Below, piece by piece: positions 1,773 to 37,070 of a stretch of 39,260 bases of DNA. The notes beneath the pieces are model-generated. The model saw only the letters and a list, made by a program, of their open reading frames with translations, was not told the DNA's origin and searched no databases. Source of the DNA: Jimgerdemannia flammicorona (Eukaryota); assembly GCA_003990765.1 (NCBI GenBank), contig RBNJ01000146.1:1-39260 (forward strand). The letters run 5' to 3'. The position numbers were made by a program, and so were the translations under genes. How positions within the stretch are numbered: the stretch's first letter is position 1; each line of letters begins with the position of its first letter.

Positions 1773-2508
1773 CACCCAGACACGGCATCACCTCTGAACG
1801 ATTTGGTAGAGTTTTACAAAAGCCAAGGCAAAAAGAACATGATAAAGCCGCTGTACGAACGGGTGCTGGCGTTCCGTGAGAAGGTGTTGGGACTAGAGCA
1901 TCCAGATACAGCATTTTCTCTGATCAATTCTACAACAAACAGGGCAAAAAGGACAAGGTGGAGCCGCTGTGCAAACGGCCGCTGGTGGTCCACGAGAAGG
2001 TGTTGGGTTCAGAGTAGTGCTCGGAACGAATTGAATCGAGGTCCAATTCAATTCGATTCAAATTTAATTATTTTTAGCTTGTTGGATTTGCCTTATATAG
2101 GCGAATCTAGCATAATAGATTTCGTTAGATTTGTATATGTTTCCGTCGAGAAATCATGTTTCAAATTCTGAAAAAAAAAAAAAAAAAAAAAAAAATCGAA
2201 TCGAATCGGATCAGACCTCAAATTCGAATCCAAAAATCCTCAATTCGTTTCGACTCAAATCAACCAAATTCGATTCGATTCGAATTGATTAGATTCGTTT
2301 GGGAGCACTAGTTCAGAGCATCCAAGCACGGCATAATCTCTGAACGATTTGGTCGTGCTCCACGGCAACTAGAACAAGTACGACAAGTCGGGGTCGTTGC
2401 ACGAACTGGCGCTGGCGATCCATAAGAGGGTGTTGATATCAGAGTACCACGGCATTATCTCTAAACGACCTCGCTTGGGCAAGTACGACAAGTATTAGCC
2501 GCTGTGTC
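1773..2508 (+). pseudogene. TPR-repeat (TPR_10/TPR_12, kinesin-light-chain-like 42-aa repeats) gene fragment
   Basis: Repeats HPDTASPLNDLVEFYKSQGK..PLYERVLAFREKVLGLE / HPDTAFSL..FYNKQGKKDKVEPLCKRPLVVHEKVLGSE / HPSTA*SLNDL..LHELALAIHKRVL. It carries frameshifts, stops and a MITE insertion. Confidence 0.9.
2015..2310. mobile_element. hAT-type MITE (296 bp) inserted in the TPR pseudogene
   Basis: TIRs TAGTGCTCGGAACGAAT...ATTCGTTTGGGAGCACTA, a perfect 8-bp TSD GTTCAGAG (2007-2014, 2311-2318) and subterminal TCGAA/TTCGA repeats. Confidence 0.93.
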
Positions 2509-2583: not shown

Positions 2584-2612
2584 AAAAAATAAAATAAAAT
2601 AAAATAAAAAAT
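2584..2612. repeat. (AAAAT)n microsatellite
   Basis: Visible tandem AAAAT units. Confidence 0.8.
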
Positions 2613-2700
2613 AAGGAAATTAGAAACCGTCTCAATGACACGACCTTAATTGATCACGTGCCTCACACAATTCCTCCCCCCCGACTTGCCATGTAGCCAC

Positions 2701-4790
2701 CCAAAGAAACTACATTTAACTGACCTCAAGATCTGGACTTGCAATATAAGAGATCACTACAGAAGGAGGAACAATAGACCCTGAATATATAGGCAAAATC
2801 AAGGTCATCCTGAAGAACAATAGTACTAAATAGATTTGAATCTATAGAGAAGAGTAAATTTCCCAAACAGTCTTTATGAAGGTTAAGATACTCTAACTTC
2901 AGAAAGTTTCTGAATTGACCTAAGGCACAGACAGATTGAAGGATTTGGAAGCTCAGACAAAAAGAAGGTATATCTCCTTTAAGTTAGTTACTATATTTTA
3001 ATAAATATACTACTAACTAGTTAAACTTCTCAAGAATCTTATTCTAGAATCAGAAGAGCAGACAATCTTTGAAATTTTTATACCACCAGACCCCAAGAAC
3101 CTCTTCTTTGAACTAAATGAAGATCTCAGAAACCCTGATATAGAAAGATATATATTTTCTAACAGAATAAACTCTATATATTCTTAAGTAACCAATTAAA
3201 GCTAAGATAGTCTCATTCTGTCAAAAGGAACTATCATAAGCCATCTGGTGCCCTATCTCAATCAGACATATATTTAGAGAAGTCTATGAACTAAATCTAT
3301 CAGAAAATGGTAAAAGATCTCAGAGAAAAGGAAAGGCCTCTCTGTGATCTAAGAGAAAGTAAAGCCTTTTACTAATATTAGAGAAGAACTAATACCTCAG
3401 CAACAGCAGCAACTAGTAAAACTCCTTTATAAATATCAGAATATCTTTATTACATAATGACAACCTGCCATATAACCTATCATATATATTACTATAATAT
3501 AAATATAAAAAATATAATACTTATTCAACAAAAACTCTATAGAATACCCCACTATCTAAATATATTTAAGAAAGAACATATTTAGGAACTCTTGGACAAT
3601 AGAGTCATCTAACCCCCTACTAGTCTCTATACTCATTATATCTAAAAAAGAAAGATAGAGACTCTGTATAGATTATAAAAAACTCAATTTAGTAACAGAA
3701 AAGAATACCTATCTTTTATTCTAAATTGATAATCTTCTAGACCAACTACAGAATACTAGATATTTCAGTAGTATGGATCTTTTTGCAAGATTTTATAAGA
3801 TCTCTAAGAATATTCAAAAAACAGTTTTTCTTACTATAGAAAAACTATTTGAATATCTCTAAATATTCTTTAAACTTTACAATATATCTCTAACTTTTCA
3901 AAAGATGATGAACTCTATTTATATTATATTAATTTACTACTGTCTAATTATCTATATAAATAATTTCTATATTTATTTAGCAAATTTCAGGAAATATTTA
4001 TAATATATAAAGAAGTTCTTTAAACTCATCTGAAAGAACTACTTAAGACTCAATACTAAGAAATGCTATTTTCAAAAACAGAAACTCGAATTTCTTAGTT
4101 TTATAGTCTCTAAAAAAAAAACTTATACAGACTTAAAGAAAACTAAGAAGATCAATAACTAGTCAGTACTCAAGACCTTAAAAGAAATACTATCATTTTT
4201 AATACTAGTATCTTACTATAGAAAATTTATTAAGAATTTTGCCCAAATTACTATACTAATTTAAATCCTTCTTATAAGAAAAGTACTATATAAATAGAAG
4301 AAACTACAAGAACTTATCTTCAAAGAACTCAAGTACTATATAACTATAGTATCAGTTCTTGTGCAATCTAATCTATAGAAGTTATTCATCTTATATATAG
4401 ATACTTCTAAAGATGACCTCAGAGCAGTCTTAGCTCAAAAAGGACCTGATCAGTAGTACTACATATATAATAGCTTATATAAGCTGAGCCACTAATAAGC
4501 AGTAAGCCAATTATGATAGTACTAAATTAGAATATCTTAAAGTCATATAAGAAGTTACTTTGTTCAAGCACTATCTTATCAGAAAAAGATTCTCTCTGAT
4601 AACTGATCATGCTGCTCTCAAATAGTTATTTAACTATAAGAAATCTATCAGAATTCTTGTCTGCTAGATTTTAATCTTATAGAATTACAAAATTACCATT
4701 ATTTATAAAGTAGAAAAAGTCTATAACAATATTGATATGTTTTTTTACTAACCCCAATAAATTAGAAAAAGGGTGTACCTAGAAACTATA
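2701..4790 (+). mobile_element. Heavily decayed Ty3/Gypsy pol remnant, family D: dUTPase - linker - RT - RNase H
   Basis: dUTPase motifs SRSGLA, GGTIDPEYIGKIKVIL and EGFGSS (2710-2960). RT-like LCIDYKKLN, YFSSMDL. RNase H FILYIDTS..AVLAQ and LITDHAAL. Many TAA/TAG stops. Confidence 0.88.
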
Positions 4791-4906
4791 CTCTAAAGAA
4801 AACTTCTATAACTATCAAAATACAAAAAGATCTCATCTAATAAGAATACTAAAAAGTCTACTGAGGATAAATAAATATTGAAGAGAAATTATAAAAAATA
4901 TACCAA

Positions 4907-5080
4907 TATTGATACTTCTCTAAATATAAGTTAGAGATATACTTAAGAGATATAATATCTGCTAGTAGTATATATAAAAACATAATCAATAAACAATATT
5001 CTTCTTTGCTCTACTCCATATTCACAACAAAGGTTATAAGTCTGGTTAGCAGCTAAGAAATACCTCTCTAAGCTATATAT
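4907..5080 (+). mobile_element. Copia LTR (~4907-5029) with decayed PBS (GGTTATAAGTCT, 5032-5043) and leader, cut by the family A insertion
   Basis: ...CTACTCCATATTCACAACA-AA-GGTTAT matches the minus-strand copy at 1257-1330. The left boundary is approximate. Confidence 0.7.
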
Positions 5081-6871: not shown

Positions 6872-7856
6872 TATAACAGTTCTAGTTTCTAAATGAGGAA
6901 GCAACTAGTTCTGGTTAACTTAAAGTAGCTCAAAGAGATACTTAATGATTTAAGTGTTCTTGAAGGATTTCTGAGAGAAAATATTCTGAGACTTTATTCA
7001 TGAGAACAAAGGGAATATTTATATAAGATCTGAAAGAAGGATCTGGAAGGATCTGAGAAATCAAAGGAAAATGCCAAGAGGAAAGTTCTTGGTAAAGATG
7101 ACAAATGATGACAAATAAGTTTTACAAGTTTTCAGGATATTCCATGACTAGCTAAATAAGTACTAGTTAATGCTCAGTATCAAGAAGGAGATTTCTAAGT
7201 ATGTGGAAAGTACTGGAAGATTATAGAATGTTCAAGAAAGATAGAGAAAAGAAATAAACTACACTAAAATGTTACATCTCCCTCTCCTTAAGAATCAACA
7301 TCCTTGTTGAATTCTCAAAGTTATACATAATAAACAATAAGACTAAAAGAAACTTCAAATAAAATATATTGGCTCATTAGCAAGGACTGGCCATTCTTAT
7401 ATAAGGTGAGGGCCAAAGTATCATCTTAATTAAATGAGAACTAGTTTGAATCTCATTGATTATAAGATTTATAGAGTTCTCCTATATCTCTTATTTCTGA
7501 TACTATATCCTTTACTGATGCTTAATATATCTGATCAGCACAGTATGTCATCTACTATCTAAGGGGAGAACCTCATGGGCAGTTAATGAGTTTCTTTTTG
7601 CTTAAACTCTTGGATGTGATCTTGGGAGTTCTTGAGGTTGGCAGCAGGTTTCCAGGTGGTATCATATTCAGGATAACCCATCTACTTGACTAGGTATTCT
7701 GTGCAATAGTATCAGACTCATTTGTCTAAGATTTTCTTGACTTTATACTCAATGTGGTCTTCAACTATGACTGGTGCTGATAGTGTTAGAATTTGGCCAG
7801 GATAAGGGGGTGACTGGTTCTAGGCCTTAAGTTGTAATATATGGAATACTGGATAT
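6872..7856 (-). mobile_element. Chromovirus (Ty3/Gypsy) 3' end: integrase tail, chromodomain, PPT and 3' LTR (6872-7276)
   Basis: PPT AAGGAGAGGGAGA followed by a TGTAAC...GTTATA LTR, with the chromodomain upstream. Confidence 0.88.
7583..7855 (-). pseudogene. Integrase GPY/F tail plus chromodomain
   Basis: YPVFHILQLK...EYKVKKILDK...EYLVK*MGYPEYDTTWKPAANLKNS. Confidence 0.9.
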
Positions 7857-9329
7857 TGTAATGTGCCAGCTCAATGGAGGCAAATTACAAGGTTGGAGAT
7901 TGATGTAGTTTGGCTTAAGCCCCCAGTTACTTTGTCAAAAAGTAACAAAATGTTCTAAGATTCCTGAGGTTCTTGGTGTTTAGTGGTATAATAGTCAAAG
8001 CTGGATATCTGCGAGTGATTTCCTTATTGGGACAGTTCTCTGGGTGTAGTGGCAATTTGTGTGTGAATAGACTTCCTTCTTGGGTCAACTGGGAATAGCA
8101 GAATTTGTGTGTAGTATGAGCAGTTTTCTTCTTGAGTGATGATCTCTGATTTCTGTGTGACAATCTGACAATTTAGTGGTTCTCCTTATACGGTATCTGT
8201 ATGACAATTTCTGTATAGCATGACAATCTCCTTGTGCATGATGGTCTGGTAATTTAGTAGTTCTCCTTTTTGGGTGGTGAGTGATCTCTGTGTAGCACAG
8301 TGGATTCCTTATGCAGGATATTCTGATAATTTGATGGATAACTCAATTTGGCTCACTGGGAATTGTACGGCATGGGTTCTTATTACTGGAAATAGTACTG
8401 GTGGTGGATTCTTCTCGAGCTCACTGGGAATGACGAATAACTTGGATATCATGGGAGGTGGGTAATTCAATAACTCGGATAACTTGGGTGACATGGATTC
8501 TTCCTGAATCAGCAGAGTTCTTCTGGGAATACAGTAGATAACTCAAAAATGGCAAATGATGTGGATTCTTCCTAAATTGGCAGACTTCTTGAAAACAGTG
8601 ACTTAACTAGGAATTAACTCAGATGGTATGGATTCTTATAAATCGGTGGCTTCAATTGGGAATATGAACAACTGGCAGTGTTCTTTGGAAAAGGGTCTCT
8701 TGGTAAAGTTATGTCAAAGACTGGCTTCATTTGTGCAACGAATCACTGTGAAGTTGCATCAGAAACTGACTTGAGCAAGGTGGCTTTCTTAGGAAGGCAG
8801 AGAATAACTTGGAAATAGCGGCTTATTCCTTAAGCAGCAGACTACTCAAATAGTGGTGAAGTTCTCCTTGAACTTAGGTGGCAAATCTTCAGGCTTATCT
8901 AGCAAGTGAACCAATCAATCTTTGTATTGGAAAGTGGACCAGAGTGGGGAAAAGAGACCAATGCTCAATCTTTAGAGGCTTCTTTGATTTACTTCAACTT
9001 TTTGGACTGAGGTTTATTCACTCTTATCTCTGGGGTAATTTATACAAGTTGGTTGCTATCTGGTTACTATGTGGCTAACTATAGATCTGCTACTTATGGC
9101 AGGTGTACAGAGTCTGTATGGTGTACAGGACCTGTATAGTGTACAGAGTCTGTATGGTATACAGAGTCTGTACAGGTAAACAGACCCCCATCTGATATAT
9201 TTGGCTAATTATACAGTTTTCTGCAGCAATGGTTGCTGGTTACTATGCTGTATGTTTGCATCATCTTGCCTAATTGTTCACATCATCTGGTTAAGATATA
9301 ATTCAGGTGATATGTTTTGGTTTGTCACA
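7857..9329 (-). repeat. Family B LTR (1473 bp) with internal tandem repeats
   Basis: Aligns in inverted orientation with 15977-17247, and has TG...CA ends. Confidence 0.9.
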
Positions 9330-9368
9330 TCAGCCCCCACTGAAGGATAGTCTATCTCAGACTATTCT

Positions 9369-9884
9369 TCAGTCATCATCCCAATAAGCATAGGCTGCTT
9401 CTGCATCTATACCTGTTCCATCATCTTCATTGTCTGTACTGGGGTTACTCCATTCTATGGGCTCTTCTTCTTCTTCAGAGAATAGGATTTTGACAGAGTT
9501 GATGATGCTCAGATAGGTAACAGGGTTCATTCCTTGAATATCATTCAGGGAGAATTGTGCCTGTATAAGGGCTGTAACATTTTGTTTGTAAATGGTGTAT
9601 AGTCTGTCTGTAGCAGTAGTATCTCTTCTGGTCAGACCTGTGGTGTTCCTGATGTAGGTCTGTTCTGGGGCTGGGAGGTTTTGCAATTGTTCACCAATTG
9701 CATAATAGTCCTGCAGTTGGTGGACTTATAATAGGTGTCTGGCCAGGGTGAGATTTTCTTGATGAGCTTGAATCCTTTGAAGGGGGCTTCCATTGGCTTG
9801 GCCAAATTGGGGCAGAGGGACTGGTAAGGCTTGGAAGGAGCTGAGGACCAATGTCTAGAGGCGCTGATCAATCCTTTGGCTCAT
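9369..9884 (-). pseudogene. ORF3 of family B (171 codons, two C>T-type internal stops), unknown function
   Basis: ATG overlaps the integrase TGA (ATGA). MSQRIDQRL*TLV...QDYYAIGEQLQNLPAPEQ...DRLYTIYK...AYWDDD*, with no frameshift. Confidence 0.8.
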
Positions 9885-10691
9885 GGTGTAGAGGGGAAAT
9901 ATGGTTTGAGGTGATTGATATGTACTGGTGTTCTCAGGGTTTGTCCATCCATACTTCTTAAATAGATACTGGTTCTTCTGATGTTGTGTACAAGATAAGG
10001 TTCTTCTCATTTCGGTTCTAGTTTGGTGGCAACATTTGTCTCAATCATGCTTCTCCAAACTAGGACTTGATCTCTAATCTTGATCTCCTGATCCTTCTGT
10101 TTTTGGTTATAATACTTCTTTTGTCTTTCCTGAGCTTTGATAATCTGTCCTTGGGCTTGATTACATAGCTATTCTGCCTTCTTGAGGAGGTCTCTGAGAT
10201 TCTCATGGTCAGCAGTTCTGGTTCTCTTGGCAAACATCATTTCAAATGGCTTTTGTTTGGTGGATGTGGCAGGGGTATTCCAAATTTCCCATAGGATCTC
10301 AGGTAAGCAGAGGTCTCAATTAGTAGGATTAACTTGGGTAAGTCCTTTCTTGATGGTCTGATTCATTCTCTCTGTCATACCATTGGTCTGAGGATGGTAT
10401 GATGTGGTCCTTTTGAGGTGGATCTTGTGAATTTGGGCATAACTTGTGATTATGTTATTGATGAATTCTATGCCTTGGTCAGAGATGAGTTCTTCTGGAG
10501 GTCCATATCTGAGTGTGAGTCTATGGAGGAGGCCTACAATAGTTAAGACATCTGTGATTTCCATTGGAAAAGCCTCAGACCACTTGGTCAGATGTTCTAC
10601 AAATACAAGAATATATTTGTTTCTTTTTGGTGTAACTGGTAGAGGTCTGATTACATCTACTCCCCATCTTTGAAGGATGTGAGTGGGTGGT
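9881..10691 (-). pseudogene. Retroelement DDE integrase core and C-terminus (family B)
   Basis: D,D-35-E context motifs as above, ending HLKPYFPSTP*. Confidence 0.92.
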
Positions 10692-10773
10692 ACACCTTTC
10701 TCTTGTATAATTCATGTTATACAAAACTTCAAGCAAAGGTTTCGACACAACTCAGAGAAAAGGTATTATAAGA

Positions 10774-12789
10774 ATGTCATCAAGCAAGAGTGTGCTGGGT
10801 CAGATGGACATGGGGCTTTTGGCTGGCAGAAGGTGGGGGAGGTTTTGGACTAGGGATGGGGGCTTTTGGAGGATCAAAGGTAGGAGAAGGCTCTGGAGGT
10901 GGACTGGTGTCTGGTGGATCTGGAGGAAGGTCTGGTCTCTCCAGCTTTGCTGACAAGGTGAAGGTGGGTGGATGGCCTACTGAGACAAGAGCTGGCACTG
11001 CTGAGGAGAAGGGCAAGGCTAGTGTCAGGAGGGGAAGTGGCCCTCAGGGGGGAGCAGTGAGCATAGGGGCTGGTGGTGCTGTGGCTGGGGGTATGACTGT
11101 TGATAGGAGTGTGATGGGGGATCAGGAAAAAAAAAGAGATGTGATAGCTGATGGTAGAGTGGGGCAGAGGTTCCCAATGCAGAAGGGAGACCTGACCAAT
11201 GGTATAACGGGGCTGGTGGTGGCACTATTACTCAAGAAATCGATCTCAGAGTTTGTGGCAACACTGTGCTTCTGAGGCTTAGGGATGATGGCAAGGATGG
11301 TCTTAGGGCTTATCTTGAAGCAGGTGGCTGGGGCAGCTTTGGTGAAATTCCTGAAGGGTCTGGAGGGGGTTGAGGTGGGCTTTGAGAAGGCAGGCCCACT
11401 GGAAGAGATGCTGAGGGCTGGAGTGGCAGTTGGGGAGGTGGTAGTCCCTATGGTGCACTGTTTGAGGTAGGACCCCAGGGTGGTACAGCTGCTGGTGAAG
11501 GGGGTGCCCACAGTGACAAAGGAGGAGATGAGGAGGAGGGTAGAAGAGGTGATGGTGGAGTATAGGGATGTAGTGGATATTGGCTTCCAGGTGTGGGAAG
11601 AGATGATGATTAGAACAGGTGATGTTGATGTCAGGATTCGGCTAGTAGGGAGGGAGGCCACAGGGAAGGCAGGTGACTGGCCCTCAGTGCTGATGTGGGG
11701 GGCTTTTATTTGTAAGGTATCGAGGGTGAAGGGGAGTGAGGAGGAGGAGGAGGATTTGTTGGAAGCATTGGAGGAGATAAGTAGTACAGTGGAATAGTGG
11801 GCAAAGGCCTGGAAGCTCTATGAGGAGTCAACGCACCTGGAGATTGTCGAGAGGAAGTGTATCCACACTGACAAGAGGCAGTGGGAGCAGGCCCAGGGGC
11901 GGTTGAGGTAGAGGGAGCTCTTGGCAAGTATGACAGGAGGGGAGAAGAGGAAGGTAGATGGGGCTGAGGGGTCTGGAGGCATCGAGGCCAGTGTGTGGGC
12001 TAGTAAAGGAGGAAAGAAGGCAGTGGTGACCAAAGAATGGGCTGCAAAGGTGCTGGGTAAGGATCCTTATGCAGATGGTACTTTTGAGGTCTGGGAGGAG
12101 GAGTTGGATAACACCCCCCCCCCACTTGTCAGGAGGGGCCCAGTGGGGCAAAGAGGGGCAGTGGAAGATGTTTCGATGCAGAGGGCCCAGTGAGTTACCT
12201 TTGGGGTCCCAGATGTAGTGAAAGGGGGCCAGGTGGTGGTGGTTGGTGAGGATGAGCTGGTGGATATCCCAGAGGAGGAGTGGAATGAGGATGCCAGTGT
12301 AGGTGCTGATACTATGATGCTGGATGCAGGGCAGCCAGGGACCCCTGAAGGGAAGGAGATTGGGAATTAGCTGTGGATGAGCAAGGTGATGGATAACCTT
12401 ACAGCTGAGGTGTTGGGGGAAGTAGATCTGAGGGTCATGCTAGAGGAGCACTGGGCATGGATTCTGTGAGGTGATGGAGTAGTGGATACACTGAAGATGG
12501 AGATTCTTACAATATTACTGGAAGAAGAGAGTTATGAGGTAGATGAGGTGAGAAGGCAGAGCTGGTGGTTGTCGCTGGTGAGCGGGCTGCCTACTGTTAG
12601 GCAGAATGTCATGGTTTGCAGTTCTGGCAGAATGCCTGTGGAGAGTATTGAGAGGACTTTGAGGAGAAAGAGGATGGGGTAATGGTTGAACTTCTGGAGG
12701 GGTTGGAGGCACAGGGAGTTGAGAAGAAGGAACTGGCTGTGGAACACATCTTGGATTTGGCACAGAAGAACTTAGGTGCAGATTTCTAG
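10774..12789 (+). pseudogene. LINE ORF1 (RRM-like core), decayed
   Basis: LLLKKSISEF...KFLKGLEGVEVGF...GVPTVTKE...IRTGDVDVRIRL, colinear with 30931-32845. The start is approximate. Confidence 0.8.
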
Positions 12790-12820
12790 AGGAGAGGTTT
12801 AATCTTTAACAATATTCCTC

Positions 12821-13892
12821 ATGAATAGTACAACTAACATTTTCTTGCTCAATGTGAATGGTCTTTGAGGATCTGGACAGTGTAAGAACATTTTTATATA
12901 GCTAAAGAGATTGGAGGCTGATCTCGTTTTACTGCAGGATGTATGATATGAGGATGAGGATGATCGAGTAGAATGGACTAGGGAATGGGGTGGGGCTGTC
13001 GCTTGGTTTGGAAAGGTGGCAATTCTGGTAAAGAAGGGTAGAGGAGATTTAGAGGGAATTAGGAACTGGGGAAATCGATTGGTCTGGGATGAATGGCACT
13101 GGCCAGGGTGGGAATTAGTGAGGGTGGGCTCTTGTTACTGCCTGGCTGCTAGGAGAGAGAGGATTGTGTAGGTTAAGGAGCTACTGGAGGAGAGCATTCT
13201 CTTGGAGGAAGGGGTCGATGTTCTTGGTGGTGATTTTAATATAGTTCAAGATTTGCGGCTAGATAGGACTGATGGAGGGAGGAATGCAGGTGGGAGAAGT
13301 GGTGGTCTAGATATATGGGAGGAGGTGAAAAACCTTAGCTCCTTAGGGGATATGGGCCAAACATGGTGGGGCAACTCCCGGGTCTACACATACTGGGTGA
13401 ATGGCTTAGAGACAAGGATTGACTGGATTCTGACAGCTGAATGTTGGGGTGCTGATGTCTGGAAGACTTTGGAGGTGGTGTGGTGCCTATGGTCTGATCA
13501 CTGGAGACTGTTTGGATAGGGGCAGTTTGGGAGGAGTAGAGATGGACCTGGATATTGACATCTTAACTCCTCTCTGCTGGCTGAGAAGGGGTTGTGGGAC
13601 TCATGGGTGGAGGACATCCAGGCAAAGATTTCACTTTGGAGGCAGGAGGGTTTATCTGTGGGTATCTGTTGGATGAGATTGAAGGAGGCTACAAGGGTGT
13701 ATTGGGGTGGAACTGGTAGAGAGGCAGGGAGATGGAGGAGGAGGCAAATATAGGGTGCTTCAAATAGGCTGAGGAGATTGCAGTCAGAGTGGGCAGATTT
13801 GCTTATGTCTGATGAGGTGGTGGATTAGAGGTTAGAAAGGGCGAAATTGGAAGTAGTTGAACTGCAACAGGTGTTGAGAGAGGAGGAGGAGA
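12821..13892 (+). pseudogene. LINE ORF2 N-terminus: apurinic-like (APE) endonuclease
   Basis: LNVNGL, LLQD, GGDFN, RIDW and SDH motifs. Confidence 0.92.
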
Positions 13893-15491
13893 CTTATGCT
13901 GAGAACCACTAGGTCTAGCACTGGCTGGGTCCCAATCCCACAGTAAGAACAAGCCTCCATCCCTGTCCAAGTAGCTGAAAGACATGTCAGCACCTATCTA
14001 CATGGAGATATTAGAGGACAAAAAGCGAAAATCCTCATAGATACAGGAGCAGCTGTCTGTGTCATTGCCAAACGATTCTTGGACACCCTGCAATGGCCCA
14101 TTGATGGACCATCCAATCTCAGCATCATAGTAGCAGATGGAGCCCGAACTCAACCCCTTGGAGAGGTATGAAATATCACCATCTCCCTTGGACACATTCA
14201 GTTCTCCATCCCCAAAGCTATTGTCACTGAAGCTGTCACCTATGACATGATTCTCAGCACCAACTGGATGAAGGAAATGAATGCAGTTGTTGACATCAGC
14301 CAACAAGTACTCAAGTTTGACTACCGAGGCAAGAAGTACAGAGTCAAGATAATCAGCTATGAGTAATCAAAGAAGAAGAAGAAGGTCACCATCCAGGAAG
14401 AATATGCCAGCAGTGAAGAATCTACCACAGAAGAAGAAGAAGAAGAATCTGAAGATGGAAATGATCCCAGACTTAATCCCTGAATTAACCTGGTGGATGA
14501 CAGACTAGAAGACAATGTGTGGGCCAAGAACACTATCCCTATCACCATTGGAGCCATCGCAGGAGAAGCCAAAGGATGCCCTATATGTCTCAAGAGACAC
14601 AAGTGTCCCAAGCACTCCTCCAAGATCATGGGAATAAGAAAATCACCTGGCACAGCCTGCCCAGAGTGCAGAAGGAAGAAGAAGAAATGCAGACATGTTC
14701 CAGAAACCCCTGCAACTGAAGCTGCAGAAGTACAAGCAATTTGGGGTCAAGAATCATCTGAGATAGAAGAAACTTCCAACCAAGAAGTTCCTGAACAAGA
14801 ACTACCTGAAGAAGAAGAGGTCCCAGAACTCATTCCCTGGGATGACCCTCACTGGACACCACTTGAAGACAATGACCCCTGGAATACAGAGGAAAGACCC
14901 AGTACTATCACCATTATCCTCAAGAAAGAAACCCACCAAGAGAAAGCTTTCTGGCTAGAAAGATGTCCACATCAAATGGTCTTCCACTCTCCCCAAGACT
15001 ACTGCTATCAGTGTCACCTATTGGACCAACAAGAAAGACAGAGACCCCAGAGACCAGAACCCCCAACTACTCTTGCACAGTCCACCACCTTTCAAGAGGT
15101 CACCACAAGGTTACAAAGTCGATTTAGGGGACAAGGCTTCTTCACTCAAACAGAAATATACCCCTTGTCTACCCTTCCCCCAATCTATGATCAAGATGGA
15201 TACTGATTCCCAAGTCAACAAGAGATCAACAGCCAGGAACACCATTTCTGGGCAATGGTATATTGCAACCATGGAAGACACCCTGATTGCTGAGACTGCA
15301 GACATCAGAAGATTCACCTCAGTCATGATGTTGCAGTACATACCTTGAAGAGAGGAGATAACCAAAGCCAGATCTGAAAAAGTCAGATTCGAAAAAGCCA
15401 GACCAAGAAGCCTGGAAAAAGAATTCTCAAGATCTATGATTTGGGAGAAGACATCCTAGCTCTCATCAGACATATAACCCACCAAGAATGA
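13893..15491 (+). pseudogene. Retropepsin protease fused in frame to acidic and Cys/His-rich segments
   Basis: ILIDTGAAVCVI (codon ATC at 14031) and YDMILSTNWM are in the same frame as ORF 14493-15206. Internal stops are TGA/TAA/TAG, explicable by single transitions. The start is approximate. Confidence 0.8.
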
Positions 15492-15937
15492 GCAGAAGAT
15501 GCCATCAACTTCATAGAAGCCCCCTTCAAAGGATCCAAGCTCATCAAAAAAATCTCACCTTGACCAGATGCCTACTACAAGTCCACCAACTGTAGGTCTA
15601 TTATGCAATCAGTGAACAATTGCAGAACCTCCCAGCCCCAGAACAGACCTACATCAGGAATACCACAGGTCTGATGAGAAGAGACACTACTGCCACAGAC
15701 AGACTATACACCATTTACAAACAAAACATCACAGCCCTGATACAAGCACAATTCTCCCTGAATGATATTCAAGGGATGAACCCTGTTACCTATTTGAGTA
15801 TCATCAACTCTGTCGAAATCCTATTTCCTGAAGAAGAAGAAGAGCCTATAGAATGGAGTGACCCCAGTACAGACAATGAAGATAATGAAACAGGTATAGA
15901 TGCAGAAGCAGTCTATGCTTATTGGGATGATGACTGA
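15488..15937 (+). pseudogene. ORF3 (149 codons, one internal TAG)
   Basis: ATG overlaps the upstream TGA (ATGA at 15488-15491). MSRRCHQLHRSPLQRIQAHQKNLTL...AYWDDD*. From residue 11 it is near-identical to the 9369-9884 copy. Confidence 0.82.
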
Positions 15938-19079: not shown

Positions 19080-19872
19080 AGTTATGTTAGTCAACTACTT
19101 CATTTATATAAATGAGTTCACTATGAAGATATATCTGACTAATTAGTTTTAGTTAAATAGGACAGACCTCTCTTTTTGGCAGACTTCTCTTTTGGTTTAA
19201 TCTGATAAGCAGATTAAAAATATTGCAAAATTCTCAAGTTCTTCTGGCTTAGTCTAGCAAGTATATTAAAATTAGATCTTCTTATATCGAAAAGTAGACT
19301 GGAGTATAAATTAAATATTAAGTTCTCTTACTTATAATATAAATTTTAGACTGAGATTTATTTACTCTTATTTTTAAGGTATTTTATATAAGTATAGTTA
19401 ATAACTAATTACTATATAACTAATTATAAAATACACAGTAAGACTAATTAGAAAGATGTGACCTGCTGTTCATAAGTAGAAATAGTATTTATAGATAAGA
19501 ATATATTTATAAGTAGAACAGATTTTATTCTATTTTAATATATTAGCTATTTATATAATAGATGATATAAGAGTAGCTATATTAAGTATTTTGTATATTA
19601 TCTGGTTATACTATAATATTTGCTCATTATATCAACTCTTACTAAAGAATAGTCTGTCCTCAGACTATTCTTTAGTTATTATTTCAATATTCATAAATAT
19701 CTTTGATATCTATTCTTATACCATCATCTTCTTCTATATCTGGGTCACTCTATTCAAGAAGTTCTTTCTCTTTCTCAGAAAATAGTACTTCTATACTATT
19801 AATAATTAACTGATAACTTTATTTATTTATTATATATTAGTTAAGTTGAATTAGATCTAAGTAAGAGTTAAG
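19080..19872 (-). mobile_element. Old family B-related element (B'): 3' LTR (~19080-19631), PPT region and ORF3 C-terminus
   Basis: 19632-19760 aligns with 9330-9460, and the conserved 42-bp LTR block is present at 19351-19392. Confidence 0.68.
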
Positions 19873-20289
19873 AGATTTCTTTATCTTAAATTCTTGTCTT
19901 TTTGACTCTGAGAGTCAGTAGTTCCTTGAGGTCAAATGTGTTTAAAGAGGTAATCCTGAAAGTCCCTTTATTGGTATACTTGTTCTTTTTCTAATACTTT
20001 CAATCTGAGGTTTATTCACTCAAAGATACTGGGTTATGTGGCTAAGTTATGAGTCATTTAACACTTTGTGAAATATTTTGCCAGTTGTGAAATGCTATAC
20101 TATATCGAGAAGCTTGATCTCACACTTTGCAAAATATTTCACCAGTTGCGAAATCGAGGACTGCTAACTATGTGGCTATACTACTTTGGAACTGGGTGTG
20201 ATCAAGTATCTGTTCTCTATTTCCTTCTTCCAAATCTGGCTATACCATCACAACTTCCTTCTAAATAGATGATCTTATCCCTGAGGCAT

Positions 20290-20751
20290 CTATTCAAACT
20301 CCCAGGCTTCAATAGTCTGTATGGTCTTGTACTATGCAATTTGTTACATTACTGTTTCCCAATGATATCGCCTGACTCGGTCAAAGTTTGAGGGAGTCAC
20401 TCCTCGCAGGTGGGCTAGTTCTGGTTCATTCTCTCAGAATAGCTTGTGGATTCTCTTAGTAATGGTGATCTGGGAATAGGAGAGCTGGCATTCTGCGATC
20501 TAATTTTCTTTGGTCATTTCTGGGTCTTGGTTGAGTATTTGGCCAAGTTTGAAGTACTCTTGAAATTCATTTCAATGCTGATAGGCCTTAAAGTGTGAGA
20601 TCTGAGAGAGATGAGTCTGCACGATACTTTAGATACTATTATAAGACTCCTCTATGGTCAGAGGCTTGGTAGTATACCATTGTCTCTCAATAGCTCTTTG
20701 GGCAGCACTAGTGATCTTGAGTACCATTGCAGTACTTTTGTTATTGGCCAT
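20290..20751 (-). pseudogene. ORF3 of family C (153 codons)
   Basis: ACCATGG start overlaps the pol TAA by 11 nt. MANNKSTAMVLK...FQEYFKLGQILN...LSYSQITITKRIHKLF...EAWEFE*. No frameshift, only transition-type stops. Confidence 0.8.
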
Positions 20752-23700
20752 GGTATTTCTTGAGTTGGTTTTGGTGAATAGTGGTGGGGATTATTGTGTC
20801 TGAGAGTTTTCATAACCAGAAAGTAATCCCTTTTATATCTTGTACCAGATAAGGTCCTTCCCACTTGGGCTCCGGTTTTCATGACCAAGAAGCTTCTACT
20901 ATATTCCAATACATCAGGACTTCATCTCCTATCTTGATAATCTCCAGAGGCTTGTGAGTCTTTTCCACATTGCTTTGTTGTAGTGCCTATGCCTTGATTA
21001 TGTAATCCTCTGCCTTTTTCCTAATTTGATGCAATCTCCATATCTCTATATCTATATGCTTCCAGACTGTGTCATTATTTGCTGACAAACTTCCACCAGA
21101 ACTTTCTTCTCCAAATAGTATTTCTCATAGTATGAAGTGGGTACTTTGTGATCGTATGTCCTGCAGAGTGGATAATGCTATTGGAAGATAGTGGTTCCAG
21201 TTTCCATATTCATTACAGATCTTGGCAATAATGTTCTTGAGAGTCCTATTGGTTCTTTCTACTTATTTGTTTCCTTGTAGGTGATAAGCTATAGTCTTGA
21301 TGTGCTGGATCTTGTATTTCTTGTAAAGAATCTCATAGAACTGATTGATGAATTCTATTCCTCTATCTATAGTAACTTGCTTTGGGGTTTTGAATCAGCA
21401 GATGATTTCTCTGTAAAAGAAATCAGCAATTGACTGTATATTGGCTTCCTTGAGGGGTCCAGTCTCTATCCATTTTGTGAATAGGTCTACGATCATGATG
21501 ACATATCAGTTGCCTGTCAATGTCAGAGATAGAGGGCCAATTACATCCATTGCTATGTGGGCAAATGGTACTGGTTTGATGTCTGCTGATCCAGGGGCTT
21601 GATCTCATTGGTTTTGTTTCTGTTTCTGGCATTTGTCACAGGTTCTGACAAATTATCTGATGTCTTCTTCCATTCCTGGCCACCACATGGTTCTTCTTGC
21701 CTTGTCATATATATTTGTTCCTCCTATGTGACCTTGCTTATGTACTTCCTTCATTACTTGATTCTTCCAGTGCTTGGATATGACTAATTGTTGTCCCTTC
21801 TTGAGTATTTCTCCATCAGTTTTGAATTGTTTCCATGTCTGATTAATAATTGTTCTTGTCCATTCTTCCAGATGTGGGGGCATCTTTTGCTGCCCCAGAT
21901 AGCTGATAATTCCATAGTATAGCTCCTTATTTATGGTGATTTTGTCGGGGTGGGGTCCTTCAGAGTGTCTATGAGAGGGCATCGGCATTTGCATTGGTTC
22001 TTCCAGAGTGGTGAGTAATTGTGGCATCATATGCTTGCAGCTTTATAATCCATCAGGCATAGATTCCTTTTGGTTCACTGGTAGTGAGTAACTAAGTGAG
22101 TGCCAAGTAGTCTCTCTGGATGGTGAAGTGTCTTTCTGCCAGGTAGTAGTGGAATTTTTCTACAGCCCAGATGACCATAAGGCATTCCAGCTTATAAAAC
22201 TCATAGGACTGCTCTGCTCCATGAGTACCTTGGCTGAGATAGGCTACCACATACTCAGTACCATTCTTTCTCTATATAAGGACAGCTCCAAGTCCCATTG
22301 TACTGGTATCTATCTGTAGGATAAATTCTTGTGTCCAGTCAGGTCTTCTCAAGATTGGGGCCTGGGTTAGCCTGATCTTGAGTTCATCGAAGGCTAGTTG
22401 CTGTTATTGTATCCACTGGAACTTGACCTCTTTTCTGAACAGGTCATAGATAGGGCTGGCAATGTGAGAGAATCTTTGAATAAATCTCCTATAATAGGAT
22501 GCTAGTTCTATGAAGGCTCGGGCTTCAGTGATACTGGTAGATACTGGGTATACTGCTACTGCCTTGATCTTTATGAGATCTGTGGGTGTTTCTTCACAAT
22601 TAATGATGTGTCCGAGGTATGCGATTTCTTCTTCTCCAAATTTGCATTTCTTGGACTTGATGTAGAGGCCATGTTTGTGAAGCCTTCTGAGGATTTCCTC
22701 AATATGTTCTAAGTGCTCCTTGGCTGTTTGGCTGAAGATGATCACATCATCCACATATACCATCATCCATTTTTCCATAACATCTCTGAAGATGCTATTC
22801 ATTATTCGCTGGAAGCTTGCTGGTGTATTGCATATCCCAAAGGGCATGCAGAGATAGAAATAGGTTCCATTAGGAGTAATGAAGGCTGATCTTTTACTGG
22901 CTTCAGGTATAAGGCCAATTTGGTAGAATCCTGAGAACAGATCCAGAGTGGTGTAAAATCATGATTCATTCCCCAGCATGATAAGAATGTTGCCAATGTT
23001 GGGCAATAGTTGTCTGTCCTTCTCTGTGACCTCATTGAGTCTTCTATAGTCTGTACAAAGTCTTGGTGCAAATTCTCCTGGTTGGCTCTCTTTCTTTGGT
23101 GTGAGGACGACCAAGGGCTGCTGGCTTTCTTGATGATACTGGATTCCTCCATTTTCTTGATTTCAGTCCTGAGCCATTCCCTATATGCTGGCGGAATGGG
23201 GTGGGCCTTTTGATAGATTGGTTTTGCATCTCTAGTGTTGATATCATGATAGTATAAGGGCTTCTTAGTCTTGATGTCCTTGAAGTCTGTGGCCAATATA
23301 TCTTCGAATATATATAGGAGATCCTGTAGTTCTCTTCTGAGGGAGAGGTTTTCTCCAATTACATAGGTGTGCTTATCTTGACTTTCTTCCTTCTTATGCT
23401 CTAATTCAGTAATCTTGATTGCTGCAAGGACTCCTCTTCCTATAGATCCAAGTCCAGCTCTTTCTTGCTGAGTTTGTCTGATGTTTGCGACTTTCTTGAT
23501 TCTTGGGTTAAGGATAGGTAGGATGAGTATTTGCACCAGCCAATCCTTCTTCCTTACTTCAAATGGGATTGTTGGATTATGATTCCTGGCAAGGAGGAGG
23601 ATTTCTCCTATATAGTCTAAATCAATGACTCCTCTTTCTATAGATATTTTGCTTTTTGCCAAGCTACTCCTTGTCTTGAGGATTCTGACATGATTTGGTG

Positions 23701-25950
23701 GGATGGTTACTTTGATTCCTGTTCTCAGCATAGTAGTGGTTTGCAGTTCAAGGATTGTGTGTATTGTGGTAGATAGGTCTATTCCTGCTATATTCTCCAA
23801 TTTGTACTGTGGCAAGACTGCATCAGGGTGGATCCTTCATATCTTGACTGTGATGTCTTCTTCATCATCACTGTCATTCAATAGCTCTGGTGGTCCATCT
23901 TCTGGTTTCTCCTGGTTCTTCTTTAGCTTGTTAGAGATCTTTTTCACTTCAATGATATAGGAGTAGCAGTGATCCAAGTGTTGGGCACAGTACATTCTTT
24001 CACCATGGGAGCACCTTCCTAGTGGGGTGTATCCATCTGCAATCCTTTTGTACCATTCTTCCTCTATCAACTGCTTATCTTTTCCTTTCTTTGTGGTAAC
24101 CATATAGGCTTCTTCTTCTTGCTCTTCCTCTATCTCAGGGTGGACTCCTTTGTGGACATTGATGGAAATTCTGATCTTCTTTCCCTGGTAGATGATTTGC
24201 ATCTTCTGTGTACTGAGATCAATCATTGCCTTGGCTTTGTGAAGCCATTGATTGCCAATGAGAATATCATAGTTGATTGCATTAGTGATGATGACATCTA
24301 CTGGAATAGTGGCTTCTCCAAACTTGATAGATATATCTCAGATCTTTCCCAGAGGTGTTGCTCATGTTCCATCAGCTGTAACAAACACCAATTTGGTAGC
24401 TTCTTCTATCTCTCAGCCTAGGCAGTCTACTGCTTTCTTGGTGATGAGACATCCTCCTACTCCTATATCGATGATAGCTTCAAAGACTCAGTCCTTGATC
24501 TGGCAGGTAGCATAGGCTGATGTCTTCTGATTATCTTCACTTTCTTCATCAGAATCTTCTTGTGCATTGTTGGCCTTGACAATTCTGTATCCTTGATCCT
24601 TTCTGATATCAGATATCCCAGTTCTCATCTGCTGTCTGAATGTTGGGATTTCAGCCAGCTGACCAAAGGTTGCATTCACCTTCTGGTCTTTGAGATCCTT
24701 AAAGATATCATACTTAAAGGTCTTGCTCTTGTGTAATTCCTGTTCCTTCTTTCGTTCACTTAATGGAGTGGTATTTTGAATAATATCTTCTACTGCTCAC
24801 TCCAGTTCAGCATCTTGTTCTAGCTCCATATCTTGATCAGCTTCAGTCTGCTGGATTTCCTTTTCGATGACTGTTTCTAGTTGTTTTATCTGTATCTGGG
24901 CCTTCTTAAGAGGTCTACCTGGAGGTCTTTTATAGGGACTGGTTTGGACATCCTTCTTGCTTGTGATAGTAGGATAAGCTTCCCATTCCTCCCTTTCCTC
25001 ATCAGATTCCCCAATCTCTTTGAAGGTGATAGTGTTCACCTGTTCATAGTTTCTGGTTGCATTACTTGGATTGGCCTTATACTTGGTTTCTGTCATACAA
25101 TCAGAGGCATAATGGTCTTCTTCTCCACACCTGTAGTAGGTTATTAATCACTTGTCATATGTGGCTATGAATTTCTATACTGGCTTCTTCTTGAACTCCT
25201 TGACCACATCGCTGAGGTGTACAGTCATTTCTGTGAACTGCTTGGCTAGTTCCTCCATTGGGTCAGCTCTTCTCTGCTCTTGTAATTGGGGTTGTTGTTG
25301 TGTATTCCTGTTAACTATAGTAGTTGGGACTGTATTGGTGATCCTTGGTGCTTGTTTGATTTTTACTCCTGTTATTCTTTCCATTGTATGGCCTTGAGGA
25401 TGTCTAGCAGTCCAGTATCTTTGGGTATAGGTAACCTTCTGTCCCAGGTGCAGTGCCCTTGGGGTAGATCAGATGGCTAAGGTAATTTCTTGATAAATGT
25501 CCTTCATGAAAGTATTCTTGGCCACTTGGTCTTGAACTGTATCAGGGTAGTCAGCAAGGACTATTTGGTGTTGTATTCTTGTATAGAATGTGTTTGAGTC
25601 TTTGGACATTCCTTGGCAGATAGTATTCAATTGATCCTTAAGTACTTGTTTGATTTCGTCTGTATAGTAGATTGCTTGCAGCCAGGTCTTGAAAGCCAGA
25701 ATTCTTGCTGGATCATTGATTCCTTATACATATATTAGCTGCAGTGAATGCAGTTCTTGCTGGGCCTCTGAGGCTTACAGAGAGTAAGGCTACTTGTTAT
25801 GCTACACTTAAGGTCCTTATAGTAGTATACTGCTCAAAATCATCAATGAAGATGATGATTGATTCATTGGAGATATATTCATGGAATATGGGTGGTCTCA
25901 TATCTATTTTATCTGATTGTGTTGTGTGGGTTCTTATTGCAGTTGTTCAT
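20741..25950 (-). pseudogene. gag-pol polyprotein (family C), many stops and a few frameshifts
   Basis: Knuckle YYRCGEEDHYASDC (~25095-25137), protease AIIDIG, RT MPFGICNTPASFQ and VYVDD, INT HKQGHIG and PKWEGPY. Confidence 0.93.
23438..23850 (-). pseudogene. dut: Trimeric dUTPase domain between protease and RT (family C)
   Basis: AGIDL, RSSLA, GVIDLDYIGEI and ERAGLGSIG correspond to dUTPase motifs I, II, III and V. Confidence 0.9.
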
Positions 25951-26462
25951 TGTTCAGCTTGAAAGTGAGGGATTTGTCTTGAATCACTAGCCAATGGACA
26001 CCAAGTTGTAATATAGCAGACACAAAGATGGGCAAGTACATCAGATTTCTTTATCTTGAATTCTTGTCTTCTTGACTCCAAGAGTCAGTAGTTCCTTGAG
26101 GCCAAATGTGTTTAAAGAGGTAATCCCGAAAGTCCCTTTATTGGTATACTTGTCCTTTTTCTAATACTTTCGATCTGAGGTTTATTTACTTGAAGATACT
26201 AGGTTATTTATATGAGTTTGCTAGCTATGAGATGGTTACTGGATTATATGGCTAAGTTATGAGTTATTTAACACTTTGTAAAATATTTTGCCAGTTGCAA
26301 AATACTATACTATATTAAGAAGCTTGATCTCGCACTTTGTAAAATATTTCACCAGTTGCAAAATCAAGGACTGCTAACTATGTGGCTATACTACTTTGGG
26401 ACTAAGTGTGATCAAGTGTCTGTTCTCTATTTCCTTCTTCCAAATCTGGCTATACTGTCACA

Positions 26463-26516
26463 TTATCTATAGTGATGATATTTCTTTAAGTTAAACTAGT
26501 GAAGTTCTTTATATAG
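26463..26516 (-). mobile_element. 54-bp sliver of B' ORF3 between the C and A insertions
   Basis: Aligns by eye with 9604-9657 and continues at 37569. Confidence 0.6.
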
Positions 26517-27210
26517 TGTGATAGTTGATCTGAATTAGAAACATAAATCAGAGAAATTAGACATTTGATCACAGTACCTAAACCCAATTCTCAATATAGT
26601 ATAGCCTTATAAATAGCAGTCATTGTTATTTTATAACTATTAAAGTTTTCATGAATGTTGAACTCTTTACAGATATTGAATATTTTATAGATGTTAAAAG
26701 ACTCAATACTTGTAAAAAGTAACTCATAACATAGTCATAACTTAGTCAACTTATAGCTAACAAACTTGTATAAATAACCCAGTATCTTAGAGTAAATAAA
26801 CCTCAGATTGAAATAGTTCAAAGTAAAGAGAAAGCAAAGGAACTAGTAAGTCTGCAGACAGATATACTTCAAACTCAACCACCCCTGCATCCAAGAACTC
26901 TGCAGAGTTAAAGAAGATCAAGTTTTCAAGATATAGAAATCTGATGTACTTCTAAGGTTAAGCATCTACTATATTATAACTTAGTGCCTATTGACTGATG
27001 ATTTAAGATGAATCTCTCACTTTCAAGCTAAACAATGAATAACCACTACTACTCAAACAACTATATAACTGAGATATCCAGACAAGATAGATATGAGACT
27101 ATTAATATTTCACAGTTATACTTCAGACAAGTCAATCATTACCTTCATTTTTTTTTTTTTTTTTTTTTTATAGTCACTTGGACTGTCCTTTATTACTGAA
27201 GTCTATAATA

Positions 27211-30200: not shown

Positions 30201-30898
30201 CCTCCATGCAGCCCCCAATGATCAGACCATGGACACCATACAACATCCAGCGCCGACCAAACATCTGCACCCCAATACTCCGCAGTCAGAACCCAGTCAA
30301 TCCTAGAGCCCAGCCCTGCCACCCAGTGGGTATACACCCACTGCTCAGCCCAGAAGCATCTACCAGAATCCACTAGAGTTCATAACCTTTCCAACTCTAA
30401 CCAGTCACCCAACCCACCACTATCGCCTCACACGCCCCTCCCGCCATCTGCTCTATCCACCTTCCTATCCTGCACCATATTGAAGTCACCTCCCATACAA
30501 TCCAGCCCCACCTCCCCCAACACACCAGCCTCCTTCAATCCTCGAATTCAATCCACCCTCTCCCCTCTCTCAGCTGGGCAGTAGCAAGACCCAACCATCA
30601 ACAAGCCCCATCTGGGCCTCTTCCACACACCCCACACCACCCTCGACCCCCAATGTCCAATGTCCTCAATGTCCCCCATCTCTTTCCGAATGAGAATACA
30701 CACTTTCCCCCTCCATACTGCCATGCCCCCCCATTCCTTGGTCCAATCCTGTAAGTCCACATCCGCCTCATAACAAACATCCTGCAATAAGAAGAGGTCC
30801 GCATCCAGTTCCTTAAGCCATCCAAATATATACCTCCTCCTAGCCGCCCCCCGTAACCCATTAATGTCCAATGGGAATATCTTAGTTGTACTGTTCAT
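27211..30898 (-). pseudogene. LINE ORF2: APE endonuclease - reverse transcriptase - C-terminal zinc-binding motif
   Basis: DINGLRG, LLQD, GGDFN, RIDW and SDH; LDQEKAYD, GVPQGD and AFADD; CEEC...TPEHWLGE. Confidence 0.95.
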
Positions 30899-30930
30899 AT
30901 TGATAAATGTTGCAAATAAGGGCCCCCAGC

Positions 30931-32845: not shown

Positions 32846-32947
32846 GTTATTAGTTGCTAGATACCAGAAATATAGTGAAAAGTGTTGTCGAAGTCTTGTG
32901 TCACCCGAATGTTACTGGTGAAAGAATGCTCGATCATTATCTTCATT

Positions 32948-36791: not shown

Positions 36792-37070
36792 AAGTTTTGA
36801 GAATACTTTAAGTTGGAACAGCTACTGAACTCACAGCCAGACATGAAAAAAGAAGACTGAATTAGAGAGTATCAGCTCTCTTATACTCAGATTACAACTG
36901 CCAAATAAGTCAATAAGATGCTTAAGGATGATGAGCCAGCTCTAGCCTATCTTTATGGAGTAGTTTCAGGAGACTTTGGATATATCAAGAGACAATACTG
37001 GGAATATATAATGATACAGATTGAACAGTTTAAGGAGATATAAATTGTAGAAGCTTGAGAGTTTGAATAA
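36792..37070 (+). pseudogene. ORF3 C-terminal part (family A)
   Basis: EYFKLEQLLN...YQLSYTQITTAK...EPALAYL...EA*EFE* is a gapless match to family C ORF3, with the stop at the same position. Confidence 0.82.

Follow-up and report, generated by a model that had tools for sequence, protein, structure and literature searches.

A small gene that follows pol, here termed ORF3 (third open reading frame), was analyzed in a 39,260-nucleotide stretch of the Jimgerdemannia flammicorona genome (GenBank assembly GCA_003990765.1, contig RBNJ01000146.1, forward strand), hereafter called the window, in which nested and decayed Ty3/Gypsy elements (A, B, Bd, B′, and C) occur together with other fragments. ORF3 is very probably a real gene under purifying selection. 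Our reading is that it would represent a lineage-restricted accessory gene of dUTPase-bearing, chromodomain-less Ty3/Gypsy elements, filling the interval between pol and the polypurine tract (PPT), that its translation would be coupled to that of pol, and that its product would act as an adaptor through a conserved tail; taken as a whole, this explanation is given an even chance of being right.

ORF3 copies and frame-specific selection

An earlier sequence-only reading of the window had proposed an accessory gene, in a frame of its own, between integrase and the PPT, and this proposal is borne out by intact relatives and by selection confined to one frame. The copies and remnants in the window are as follows.

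9369-9884, minus strand: ORF3 of B, 171 codons plus stop, ATG at 9884-9882, internal stops at codons 10 and 53
15513-15937, plus strand: aligned part of ORF3 of Bd, matching B codons ~31-171 at 92% nucleotide identity, one internal stop
15488-15512, plus strand: ATG of Bd (in ATGA) and eight codons, in frame, with no alignment to B
20290-20751, minus strand: ORF3 of C, 153 codons plus stop, six internal stops, ATG in ACCATGG
36792-37070, plus strand: ORF3 of A, latter half only, 92 codons plus stop, five internal stops
37606-37803, minus strand: B′ remnant of ORF3 residues 1-66, heavily mutated (tblastn with the database protein P0001, E 6e-8)
19675-19854, minus strand: B′ remnant of ORF3 residues ~117-183 (tblastn with the database protein P0004, E 1e-7)

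The four stretches in B, Bd, C, and A translate as had been claimed, with two, one, six, and five internal stops, respectively, and the aligned parts of the copies are free of frameshifts. In their aligned part, B has a stop where Bd has a sense codon and the reverse (TAA/CAA and CAG/TAG), while the alignment of A and C, 279 nucleotides long, is gapless and shows synonymous changes, such as FKL encoded by TTT AAG TTG in A and by TTC AAA CTT in C; all of these details had been noted from the letters and were found again. The ORF3s of A and C share 62% nucleotide and 51% amino acid identity, with their differences distributed over the three codon positions as 35/23/47. In both B and C, ORF3 spans from the pol stop to ~36 nucleotides before the 3′ long terminal repeat (LTR), which leaves space for a PPT only; in B, a polypurine-like G-run at 9334-9341 is followed by the TG start of the LTR, 36 nucleotides past the ORF3 stop.

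The view that ORF3 is conserved in three families stood as to conservation and not as to the number, since A and C are sister families and the copies therefore represent two deep lineages, the integrases of the B lineage and of C being 32% identical over 338 residues. Conservation across "three families" thus consists of one close pair (A/C) and one remote link between B and C that is only probable. B′ was likewise said to carry ORF3, and its remnants were recovered, while its pol junction is too decayed to read.

A word-indexed search covering 5.8 billion proteins returned six relatives of B ORF3 (56 to 79% identity), three of them complete at 171, 172, and 183 amino acids, and eight relatives of C ORF3, including the complete protein P0007 (153 amino acids, 78% identity, with identical first and last residues). 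B ORF3 is 74% identical over 168 residues to the intact 171-amino-acid P0001. A profile of the B family, searched against 1.84 billion representatives, produced five matches, all to the B family and four of them additional, and one metagenome scan yielded two DNA loci (L001 and L002) in which integrase is followed by ORF3. The distribution of the family is narrow, amounting to 14 relatives by word search and five representatives library-wide. Every internal stop of the window copies corresponds to a Q, R, or W codon in the intact relatives, consistent with transition-driven decay throughout the elements.

Selection was estimated from Nei-Gojobori counts, with all three frames compared for A/C and B/Bd. 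Between A and C, the proportions of nonsynonymous (pN) and synonymous (pS) differences in the ORF3 frame were 0.267 and 0.699, giving an omega of 0.16 (0.50 and 1.18 in the other frames), and between B and Bd the ORF3 frame gave an omega of 0.22 (0.45 and 2.16 in the other frames). The comparison of B with L001 gave pN 0.17 and pS 0.67, and those of L002 with B and with L001 gave pN 0.22 to 0.25 with saturated pS. Overall, ORF3 pN/pS was about 0.16 to 0.25, next to omega values of 0.10 to 0.26 for pol of the same pairs, and judged by pN the ORF3 protein changes 2 to 3 times faster than integrase. The dN/dS between copies, which had been put forward as a check, is well below 1, and purifying selection is confined to the ORF3 frame.

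ORF3 could alternatively be a chance open frame of decaying repeats, without function, as all copies in the window are broken and the intact database proteins form an ascertained sample, given that gene callers list open frames only. Such an origin is highly improbable, since purifying selection is frame-specific in four independent pair comparisons, the start and stop positions of ORF3 are kept at 56% identity, and the C-terminal peptide is conserved.

The junction of pol and ORF3

The start of ORF3 overlaps the end of pol in both lineages, as follows.

9881-9883, minus strand: pol (integrase) stop TGA of B, its TG shared with the ORF3 ATG (ATGA); ORF3 in frame -1 relative to pol
20741-20743, minus strand: pol stop TAA of C, 11-nucleotide overlap with ORF3 (ATGGCCAATAA); ORF3 in frame +1 relative to pol

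The overlap sequences reported earlier, ATGA at 9881-9884 and ACCATGGCCAATAA at the C junction, are present. So is the ATGA of Bd at 15488-15491, which had been counted as a further conserved case; this part of the claim fell, because the DNA before ORF3 codon ~31 cannot be aligned to B and the upstream ORF is unlike integrase. That upstream frame (14301-15490, plus strand; 396 codons with five stops) is acidic, contains two Cys-rich motifs, and ends in a TGA over the ORF3 ATG; it had no Pfam match and no similarity to integrase, and may derive from the gag of a B-type element or from foreign DNA. The description of Bd as a non-autonomous "gag-ORF3" derivative was accordingly left unsupported.

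Conservation of the overlap holds within the B lineage, in DNA copies and proteins alike. The junction reads ccATGA in B and L001 and ccATAA in L002 (ATGA in 2/3), with CCA as the last pol codon; in L002, a G-to-A change removed the ORF3 start, and the position of the pol stop is unchanged. In 9/9 B-family proteins that reach the start, Met is followed by N, T, or I, residues for which only A-initial codons exist, so that the fourth base needed for the pol TGA is kept while the second codon varies; these proteins are few and interrelated, and the count amounts to less than nine separate events. Moreover, on the branch of P0004 and L002 the overlap has outlasted indels on both sides, of one codon where pol ends and of three residues where ORF3 begins.

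Upstream of the ATG, the ORF3 frame is open for ~50 codons in B and L002. Over 41 of these codons it appears neutral (pN 0.206, pS 0.257), and the pS of pol in the same stretch is not lowered (0.494 versus 0.504), which argues that the overlapping ATG is the ORF3 start and that a frameshift fusion is unlikely. An ancestral fusion with integrase, named earlier among the findings that would speak against the proposal, was not detected, the upstream frame being neutral. The related idea that ORF3 is a C-terminal extension of Pol, made by programmed frameshifting or derived from an old in-frame fusion with integrase, draws on the open upstream frame and on two database proteins (P0004 and P0005) that were called from upstream ATGs. 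Besides the neutral stretch, which adds no constraint on pol synonymous sites, this idea is contradicted by a stop nine codons before the ATG in L001 and by the shift required, which would be -1 in B but +1 in C; a canonical slippery heptamer was not seen by eye in the overlap, and no fused or longer relatives occurred among 8000 candidates scored, although this last point is weak evidence. We regard a Pol extension as very unlikely.

Relationship between the B and C/A ORF3 genes

The ORF3 genes of B and of C/A probably share a common origin, as judged by sequence comparison. BLASTP aligned the two at E 0.002 with 12/65 identities (18%), hhalign placed B residues 55-109 on C residues 61-115 (54 columns, probability 58%, E 1e-4), and tblastn with P0011, a member of the C/A family, reached B ORF3 at E 0.016. 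Reciprocal searches with hidden Markov models (HMMs) were run against the six-frame translation of the window, L001, and L002. With the B-family HMM, C ORF3 was the best non-self match (E 0.0023; next unrelated match, 0.48), and with the C-family HMM it was the ORF3 of L001 (E 0.032; next unrelated match, 0.52), both matches using one register. The motif pair that had been picked out by eye (QDYYAIGEQL/QEYFKLGQIL and TDRLYTIY/TKRIHKLF) lies in the register found by hhalign and the HMMs, and the predicted helices of the B and C models agree at a six-residue offset. The two lineages are also alike in the position of ORF3, in lacking a chromodomain, and apparently in having a dUTPase.

It is unlikely, though by no means negligible, that the two genes are unrelated and were independently captured or born at the same permissive spot after pol. 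Counting against common descent, the library-wide B profile reached no C-family member, identity is only 18% over 65 residues with an hhalign probability of 58%, the frames relative to pol differ, and the long acidic tail occurs in B alone (whole-protein charge of -12 to -16, versus -1 in P0007); repeated independent gain of ORF3s has been documented in rotifer elements (PMC5408684). Against separate origins stand the reciprocal best HMM matches, which share one register with E values 20 to 200 times lower than the noise, the tblastn match of P0011, and the matching helix boundaries. Moreover, an ORF3 identity of ~20% fits common descent, because the integrases are 32% identical and ORF3 pN runs 2 to 3 times faster.

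Possible modes of ORF3 expression

Ribosomes completing pol on the full-length genomic RNA would, in the mechanism we propose, restart at the overlapping AUG (ATGA in B, 11 nucleotides in C), which would set ORF3 at a constant, low ratio to pol. From the arrangement of the junctions, we hold such termination-reinitiation to be a real prospect, with slightly less than an even chance. After long ORFs, the distance between stop and AUG is typically within 20 nucleotides, and SART1 is a retrotransposon precedent (PMC10275272). Both overlaps found here (4 nucleotides in B and L001, 11 in C) are out of frame and lie within that range.

Several observations speak against coupled translation. In the C/A lineage the overlap varies in length, because a start of MANQ or MATQ, as some of its proteins have, is incompatible with a pol stop at the same place, and the frame of ORF3 relative to pol changes from -1 in B to +1 in C. 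The 120 nucleotides at the junctions folded no better than shuffled sequences (z of 0.94, 0.64, -0.87, and -0.57), and 0/13 predicted base pairs covaried among the three sequences compared. TGGGA, a calicivirus-type rRNA-complementary motif, occurs 112 to 125 nucleotides before the ORF3 start in L001, L002, and C (3/4 junctions), yet this proves nothing, because it lies inside the integrase KWEGPY codons; in B, at about 9997-10010, the Trp codon of KWEGPY is now a stop. Finally, the ORF3 starts (ccATGA and ACCATGG) are in good scanning context, which suits a subgenomic mRNA at least equally well.

Separately, the last 96 nucleotides of pol show five differences between L001 (1088-1183) and L002 (2873-2968), versus 61/480 further upstream; there is no comparable dip in divergence near the junction between B and L001. 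The likeness of the two loci may stem from an element acting at the nucleotide level or from the small numbers involved.

In errantiviruses and retroviruses, env is expressed from a subgenomic mRNA generated by splicing. A message of this kind, whose donor would be close to the 5′ end and whose acceptor would directly precede the AUG, could also deliver ORF3, in which case the overlap would reflect tight packing; we consider this the chief alternative, though a somewhat doubtful one. In its favor, the ORF3s of LTR retrotransposons typically form transcription units of their own, whose expression involves splicing (PMC5408684), and CERV of the Gypsy element Cer1 is made from a spliced five-exon mRNA (PMC10309623). 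The strong scanning context at both ORF3 starts, the variation of frame between lineages, and the failure to detect reinitiation-type RNA structure at the junctions point the same way, as does a conserved CAG seen by eye ~45 nucleotides before the B ATG with no ATG in between; this candidate acceptor, however, lies within integrase codons, so that its conservation is uninformative. The exact ATGA/ATAA overlap in 3/3 B-lineage DNA copies, implied also in 9/9 proteins, has been retained despite indels, and packing alone would not demand such exactness. The smaller remainder of probability falls to routes other than reinitiation or splicing.

The predicted ORF3 protein

The product of ORF3 would be a soluble, all-helical protein of 150 to 180 amino acids. 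In the AlphaFold model of the B family (pLDDT 70, pTM 0.57), helices occupy residues 34-134 and the tail is disordered; the C-family model is poor (pLDDT 51) and weakens this picture. In agreement with the sequence-only reading, no signal peptide or transmembrane segment is apparent, the top 19-residue Kyte-Doolittle mean being 0.19 to 1.11 in 4/4 intact proteins. ORF3 is not an env-like protein of the errantivirus or retrovirus type, for it has no membrane segment and no family or fold match to such proteins.

The family had been left unrecognized, and it stayed so in all checks made with Pfam, PDB, Foldseek, BFVD, VIA-align, and the Atlas. No Pfam family exceeded the threshold for ORF3 in a search examined up to E 10. 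Sequence profiles against PDB gave best E values of 0.045 and 0.15, and a search of PDB sequences with the tail peptide gave 0 matches. The best Foldseek matches of the B model had E 0.58 (PDB) and 0.11 (BFVD), and VIA-align against 48,161 chains gave a best Z of 4.6, under the chance level for helical models. P0001 is present identically in the Atlas, where its neighbors are unrelated (TM at most 0.37) and where the integrase piece falls among rve clusters only. Two candidates were set aside: EF-G-binding_N, whose Pfam matches (E 0.017 to 0.16) were below the cutoff and were dismissed as chance, and a DNA-binding reading based on VIA-align matches to the DNA-binding domains of KorB, Spo0J, and DnaA, whose Z of 4.2 to 4.6 is below chance for helical models.

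Over the last 35 residues of the B family, the net charge is -15 to -17, yet this stretch is nearly invariant in the alignment. It contains the motifs [LIV]-x-W-[SC]-[DN], G-[TM]-G-I-D-A, and, at the C-terminus, Y/H-W-[DN]-D-D, two of them with an invariant Trp; the C family ends in A-W-E-F-E. Such a conserved Trp-acidic end resembles a short linear motif through which a partner could be bound, and its pattern may be akin to the Arp2/3-binding acidic motifs of the WASP family, the "W-acidic" motifs of kinesin light chain, or acidic activation domains. ORF3 would then be an adaptor, its tail linking some part of the element to a host factor. We think this role unlikely, the argument for it being a motif resemblance.

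Elements in the window

The features of the elements that frame ORF3 are listed below.

19873-26462, minus strand: element C, complete but decayed, with LTRs at 19873-20252 and 26043-26462
About 26510-27068 and 37101-37570, plus strand: LTRs of element A, the sister of C
9884-10714, minus strand: integrase core and GPY/F-type C-terminal part of B (Pfam rve match and translation)
7849-9332, minus strand: putative 3′ LTR of B, common to B and the inverted copy Bd as far as 7849/17255

Element C is a Ty3/Gypsy (Metaviridae) element, having protease, reverse transcriptase, RNase H, and integrase in this order between two LTRs and a zinc knuckle in Gag. Its domains by Pfam are gag (zf-CCHC), protease (RVP_2), dUTPase, RVT_1, RT_RNaseH, Integrase_H2C2, and rve, followed by ORF3, and its LTR pair is 90 to 92% identical. 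The dUTPase (PF00692, E 6.5e-16) lies between RVP_2 and RVT_1. Elements A and C are 74 to 77% identical in pol DNA, and A has an internal deletion that brings the N-terminus of integrase up against the latter half of ORF3.

Reverse transcriptase, RNase H, and integrase were detected in the B lineage, and the B integrase is 79 to 82% identical to those of L001 and L002. Element B itself is truncated upstream at about 10800, leaving the integrase core and C-terminus, ORF3, and ~1.5 kb shared with Bd. The flanking DNA of B and Bd differs beyond 7849/17255; we infer the LTR of B, whose 5′ LTR is absent from the window. A dUTPase is firm in C only and suggestive in the B lineage, where the first residues of L002 read, by eye, as the end of a dUTPase and where a B-like degenerate pol at 2705-2935 gave a dUTPase match (E 6e-9). 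The degenerate pol of this region (2600-5070, plus strand; 28% G+C) shows dUTPase and RNase H matches, is ended by an A-type LTR at 5074, and has peptides that resemble L002 by eye.

The B and C elements are not chromoviruses, as the chromodomain fused to the integrase C-terminus that marks this group is missing. Pfam gave no Chromo match in pol of B, L001, L002, and C, and pol of all four ends 35 to 40 residues beyond the GPY/F motif. A chromodomain (PF00385, E 1e-7) does occur at 7595-7747 (minus strand), ~100 nucleotides past the end of the B LTR; it is part of another element, of the chromovirus type, that received the B insertion.

The third B-type copy, B′, is interrupted within its ORF3 by nested insertions of C and A, whose insertion points are ~50 nucleotides apart (19675-19854, 26463-26509, and 37606-37803); their closeness could be due to chance or to a common target preference. 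Two further blocks, 27070-32900 (coding strand minus) and 10800-14300 (coding strand plus), have 50 to 58% G+C and a GC skew of up to 0.57 in size. The former splits element A right after its 5′ LTR, contains an RVT_1 reverse transcriptase (E 1.4e-15), and looks like an element of the long interspersed nuclear element (LINE) type with a G-rich coding strand; the latter sits between the head-to-head copies B and Bd. Repeats of the TPR_10/TPR_12 type (E 3.6e-11) at 1785-2444 (plus strand) comprise three diverged direct units of ~87 nucleotides, interrupted by stops, and are probably what is left of an NLR-like host gene with TPR repeats.

Mutational decay of the repeats

The ratio of observed to expected CpG is 0.01 to 0.13 in the retroelements, with CpA and TpG in excess, and 0.52 to 0.63 in the flanks (1-2600 and 37570-39260). 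Transitions account for 32/35 differences between B and Bd. The depletion of CpG fits repeat-directed cytosine methylation with deamination or a CpG-directed mutation process. Repeat-induced point mutation of the Neurospora (CpA) type was ruled out as the source of the transitions, CpA/TpG being in excess and CpG nearly absent. The host context of ORF3 would be one in which repeats are heavily methylated and mutated. Repeat-specific loss of CpG, dUTPase-bearing Gypsy elements, and TPR_10 repeats together suggest that the host is a fungus.

Implications and comparison with known systems

Extra genes of LTR retrotransposons are few and mostly unexplained, and they lie at the interface with the host (entry, RNA export, targeting, and silencing). 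ORF3 is small, is selected in two lineages whose integrases are 32% identical, and has natural intact copies, which together make it a tractable handle on the Gypsy life cycle. If the ATGA overlap does serve termination-reinitiation, LTR retrotransposons would join the few eukaryotic systems in which translation resumes beyond a very long ORF. In annotation, a recurrent "hypothetical protein" of genome and metagenome sets can be recognized as a retrotransposon gene. A bolder version, in which the ORF3 family is ancestral to a dUTPase Gypsy clade, is the first LTR-element gene expressed by pol-coupled reinitiation, and bears a tail motif that hijacks a host machine, strikes us as improbable; if true, such a tail could move or target the particle or the preintegration complex in place of a chromodomain.

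Extra ORFs after pol are known in LTR retrotransposons, and many ORF3 types have been described in rotifer elements (PMC5408684). Vesta, Juno, and TelKA likewise have a post-pol ORF in Gypsy-like elements with dUTPase, several rotifer ORF3s are small, non-enzymatic, and without homologues, and non-autonomous derivatives retain ORF3 (PMC5408684). By type, the ORF3s of rotifers comprise env-like, GDSL esterase, DEDDy exonuclease, coiled-coil, and transmembrane proteins, reported to be made from spliced messages (PMC5408684), whereas the present ORF3 matches none of those families, has no membrane segment, and overlaps the pol stop with its start. CERV of Caenorhabditis elegans Cer1 is also a Gypsy accessory protein that is not Gag, Pol, or Env, and it is essential for export of the genomic RNA (PMC10309623). 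Its homologues are confined to a narrow host group, and it is fast evolving with partly helical predicted domains (PMC10309623). CERV has 517 amino acids, a five-exon spliced mRNA sharing gag exons, and a G-protein-like domain (PMC10309623), while the present ORF3 has 150 to 180 amino acids, lies wholly 3′ of pol, is acidic, and shows no detected similarity to any known protein. Gypsy elements with dUTPase have been described in basidiomycetes, Tuber, and rotifers; in the fungal PosPlaTy3-5, the dUTPase is located between protease and reverse transcriptase, as in C, and a figure legend of the same source mentions an "additional ORF of unknown function" in some fungal Gypsy elements (PMC2864245).

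The literature consulted described neither the ORF3 protein family nor an LTR element in which reinitiation is coupled to pol. Victoriviruses possess an AUGA stop/start overlap. The hypovirus CHV1 has UAAUG at the corresponding place (PMC2699510), and in the TURBS (termination upstream ribosome-binding site) systems of caliciviruses and influenza B virus, as in ORF1/ORF2 of SART1, an out-of-frame downstream AUG lies at or near the stop, as here (PMC10275272). TURBS-type systems require an RNA element, upstream or downstream (PMC10275272), and none was detected at the ORF3 junctions.

With respect to position, the chromodomain of chromoviruses and the env of errantiviruses occupy the same location as ORF3, after the GPY/F module of integrase and before the PPT. 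ORF3 is a separate frame that has no signal peptide or membrane segment. Since post-pol extra ORFs are themselves known, what is new here is a family of proteins with no previous description, whose gene overlaps pol in an unusually tight and conserved manner.

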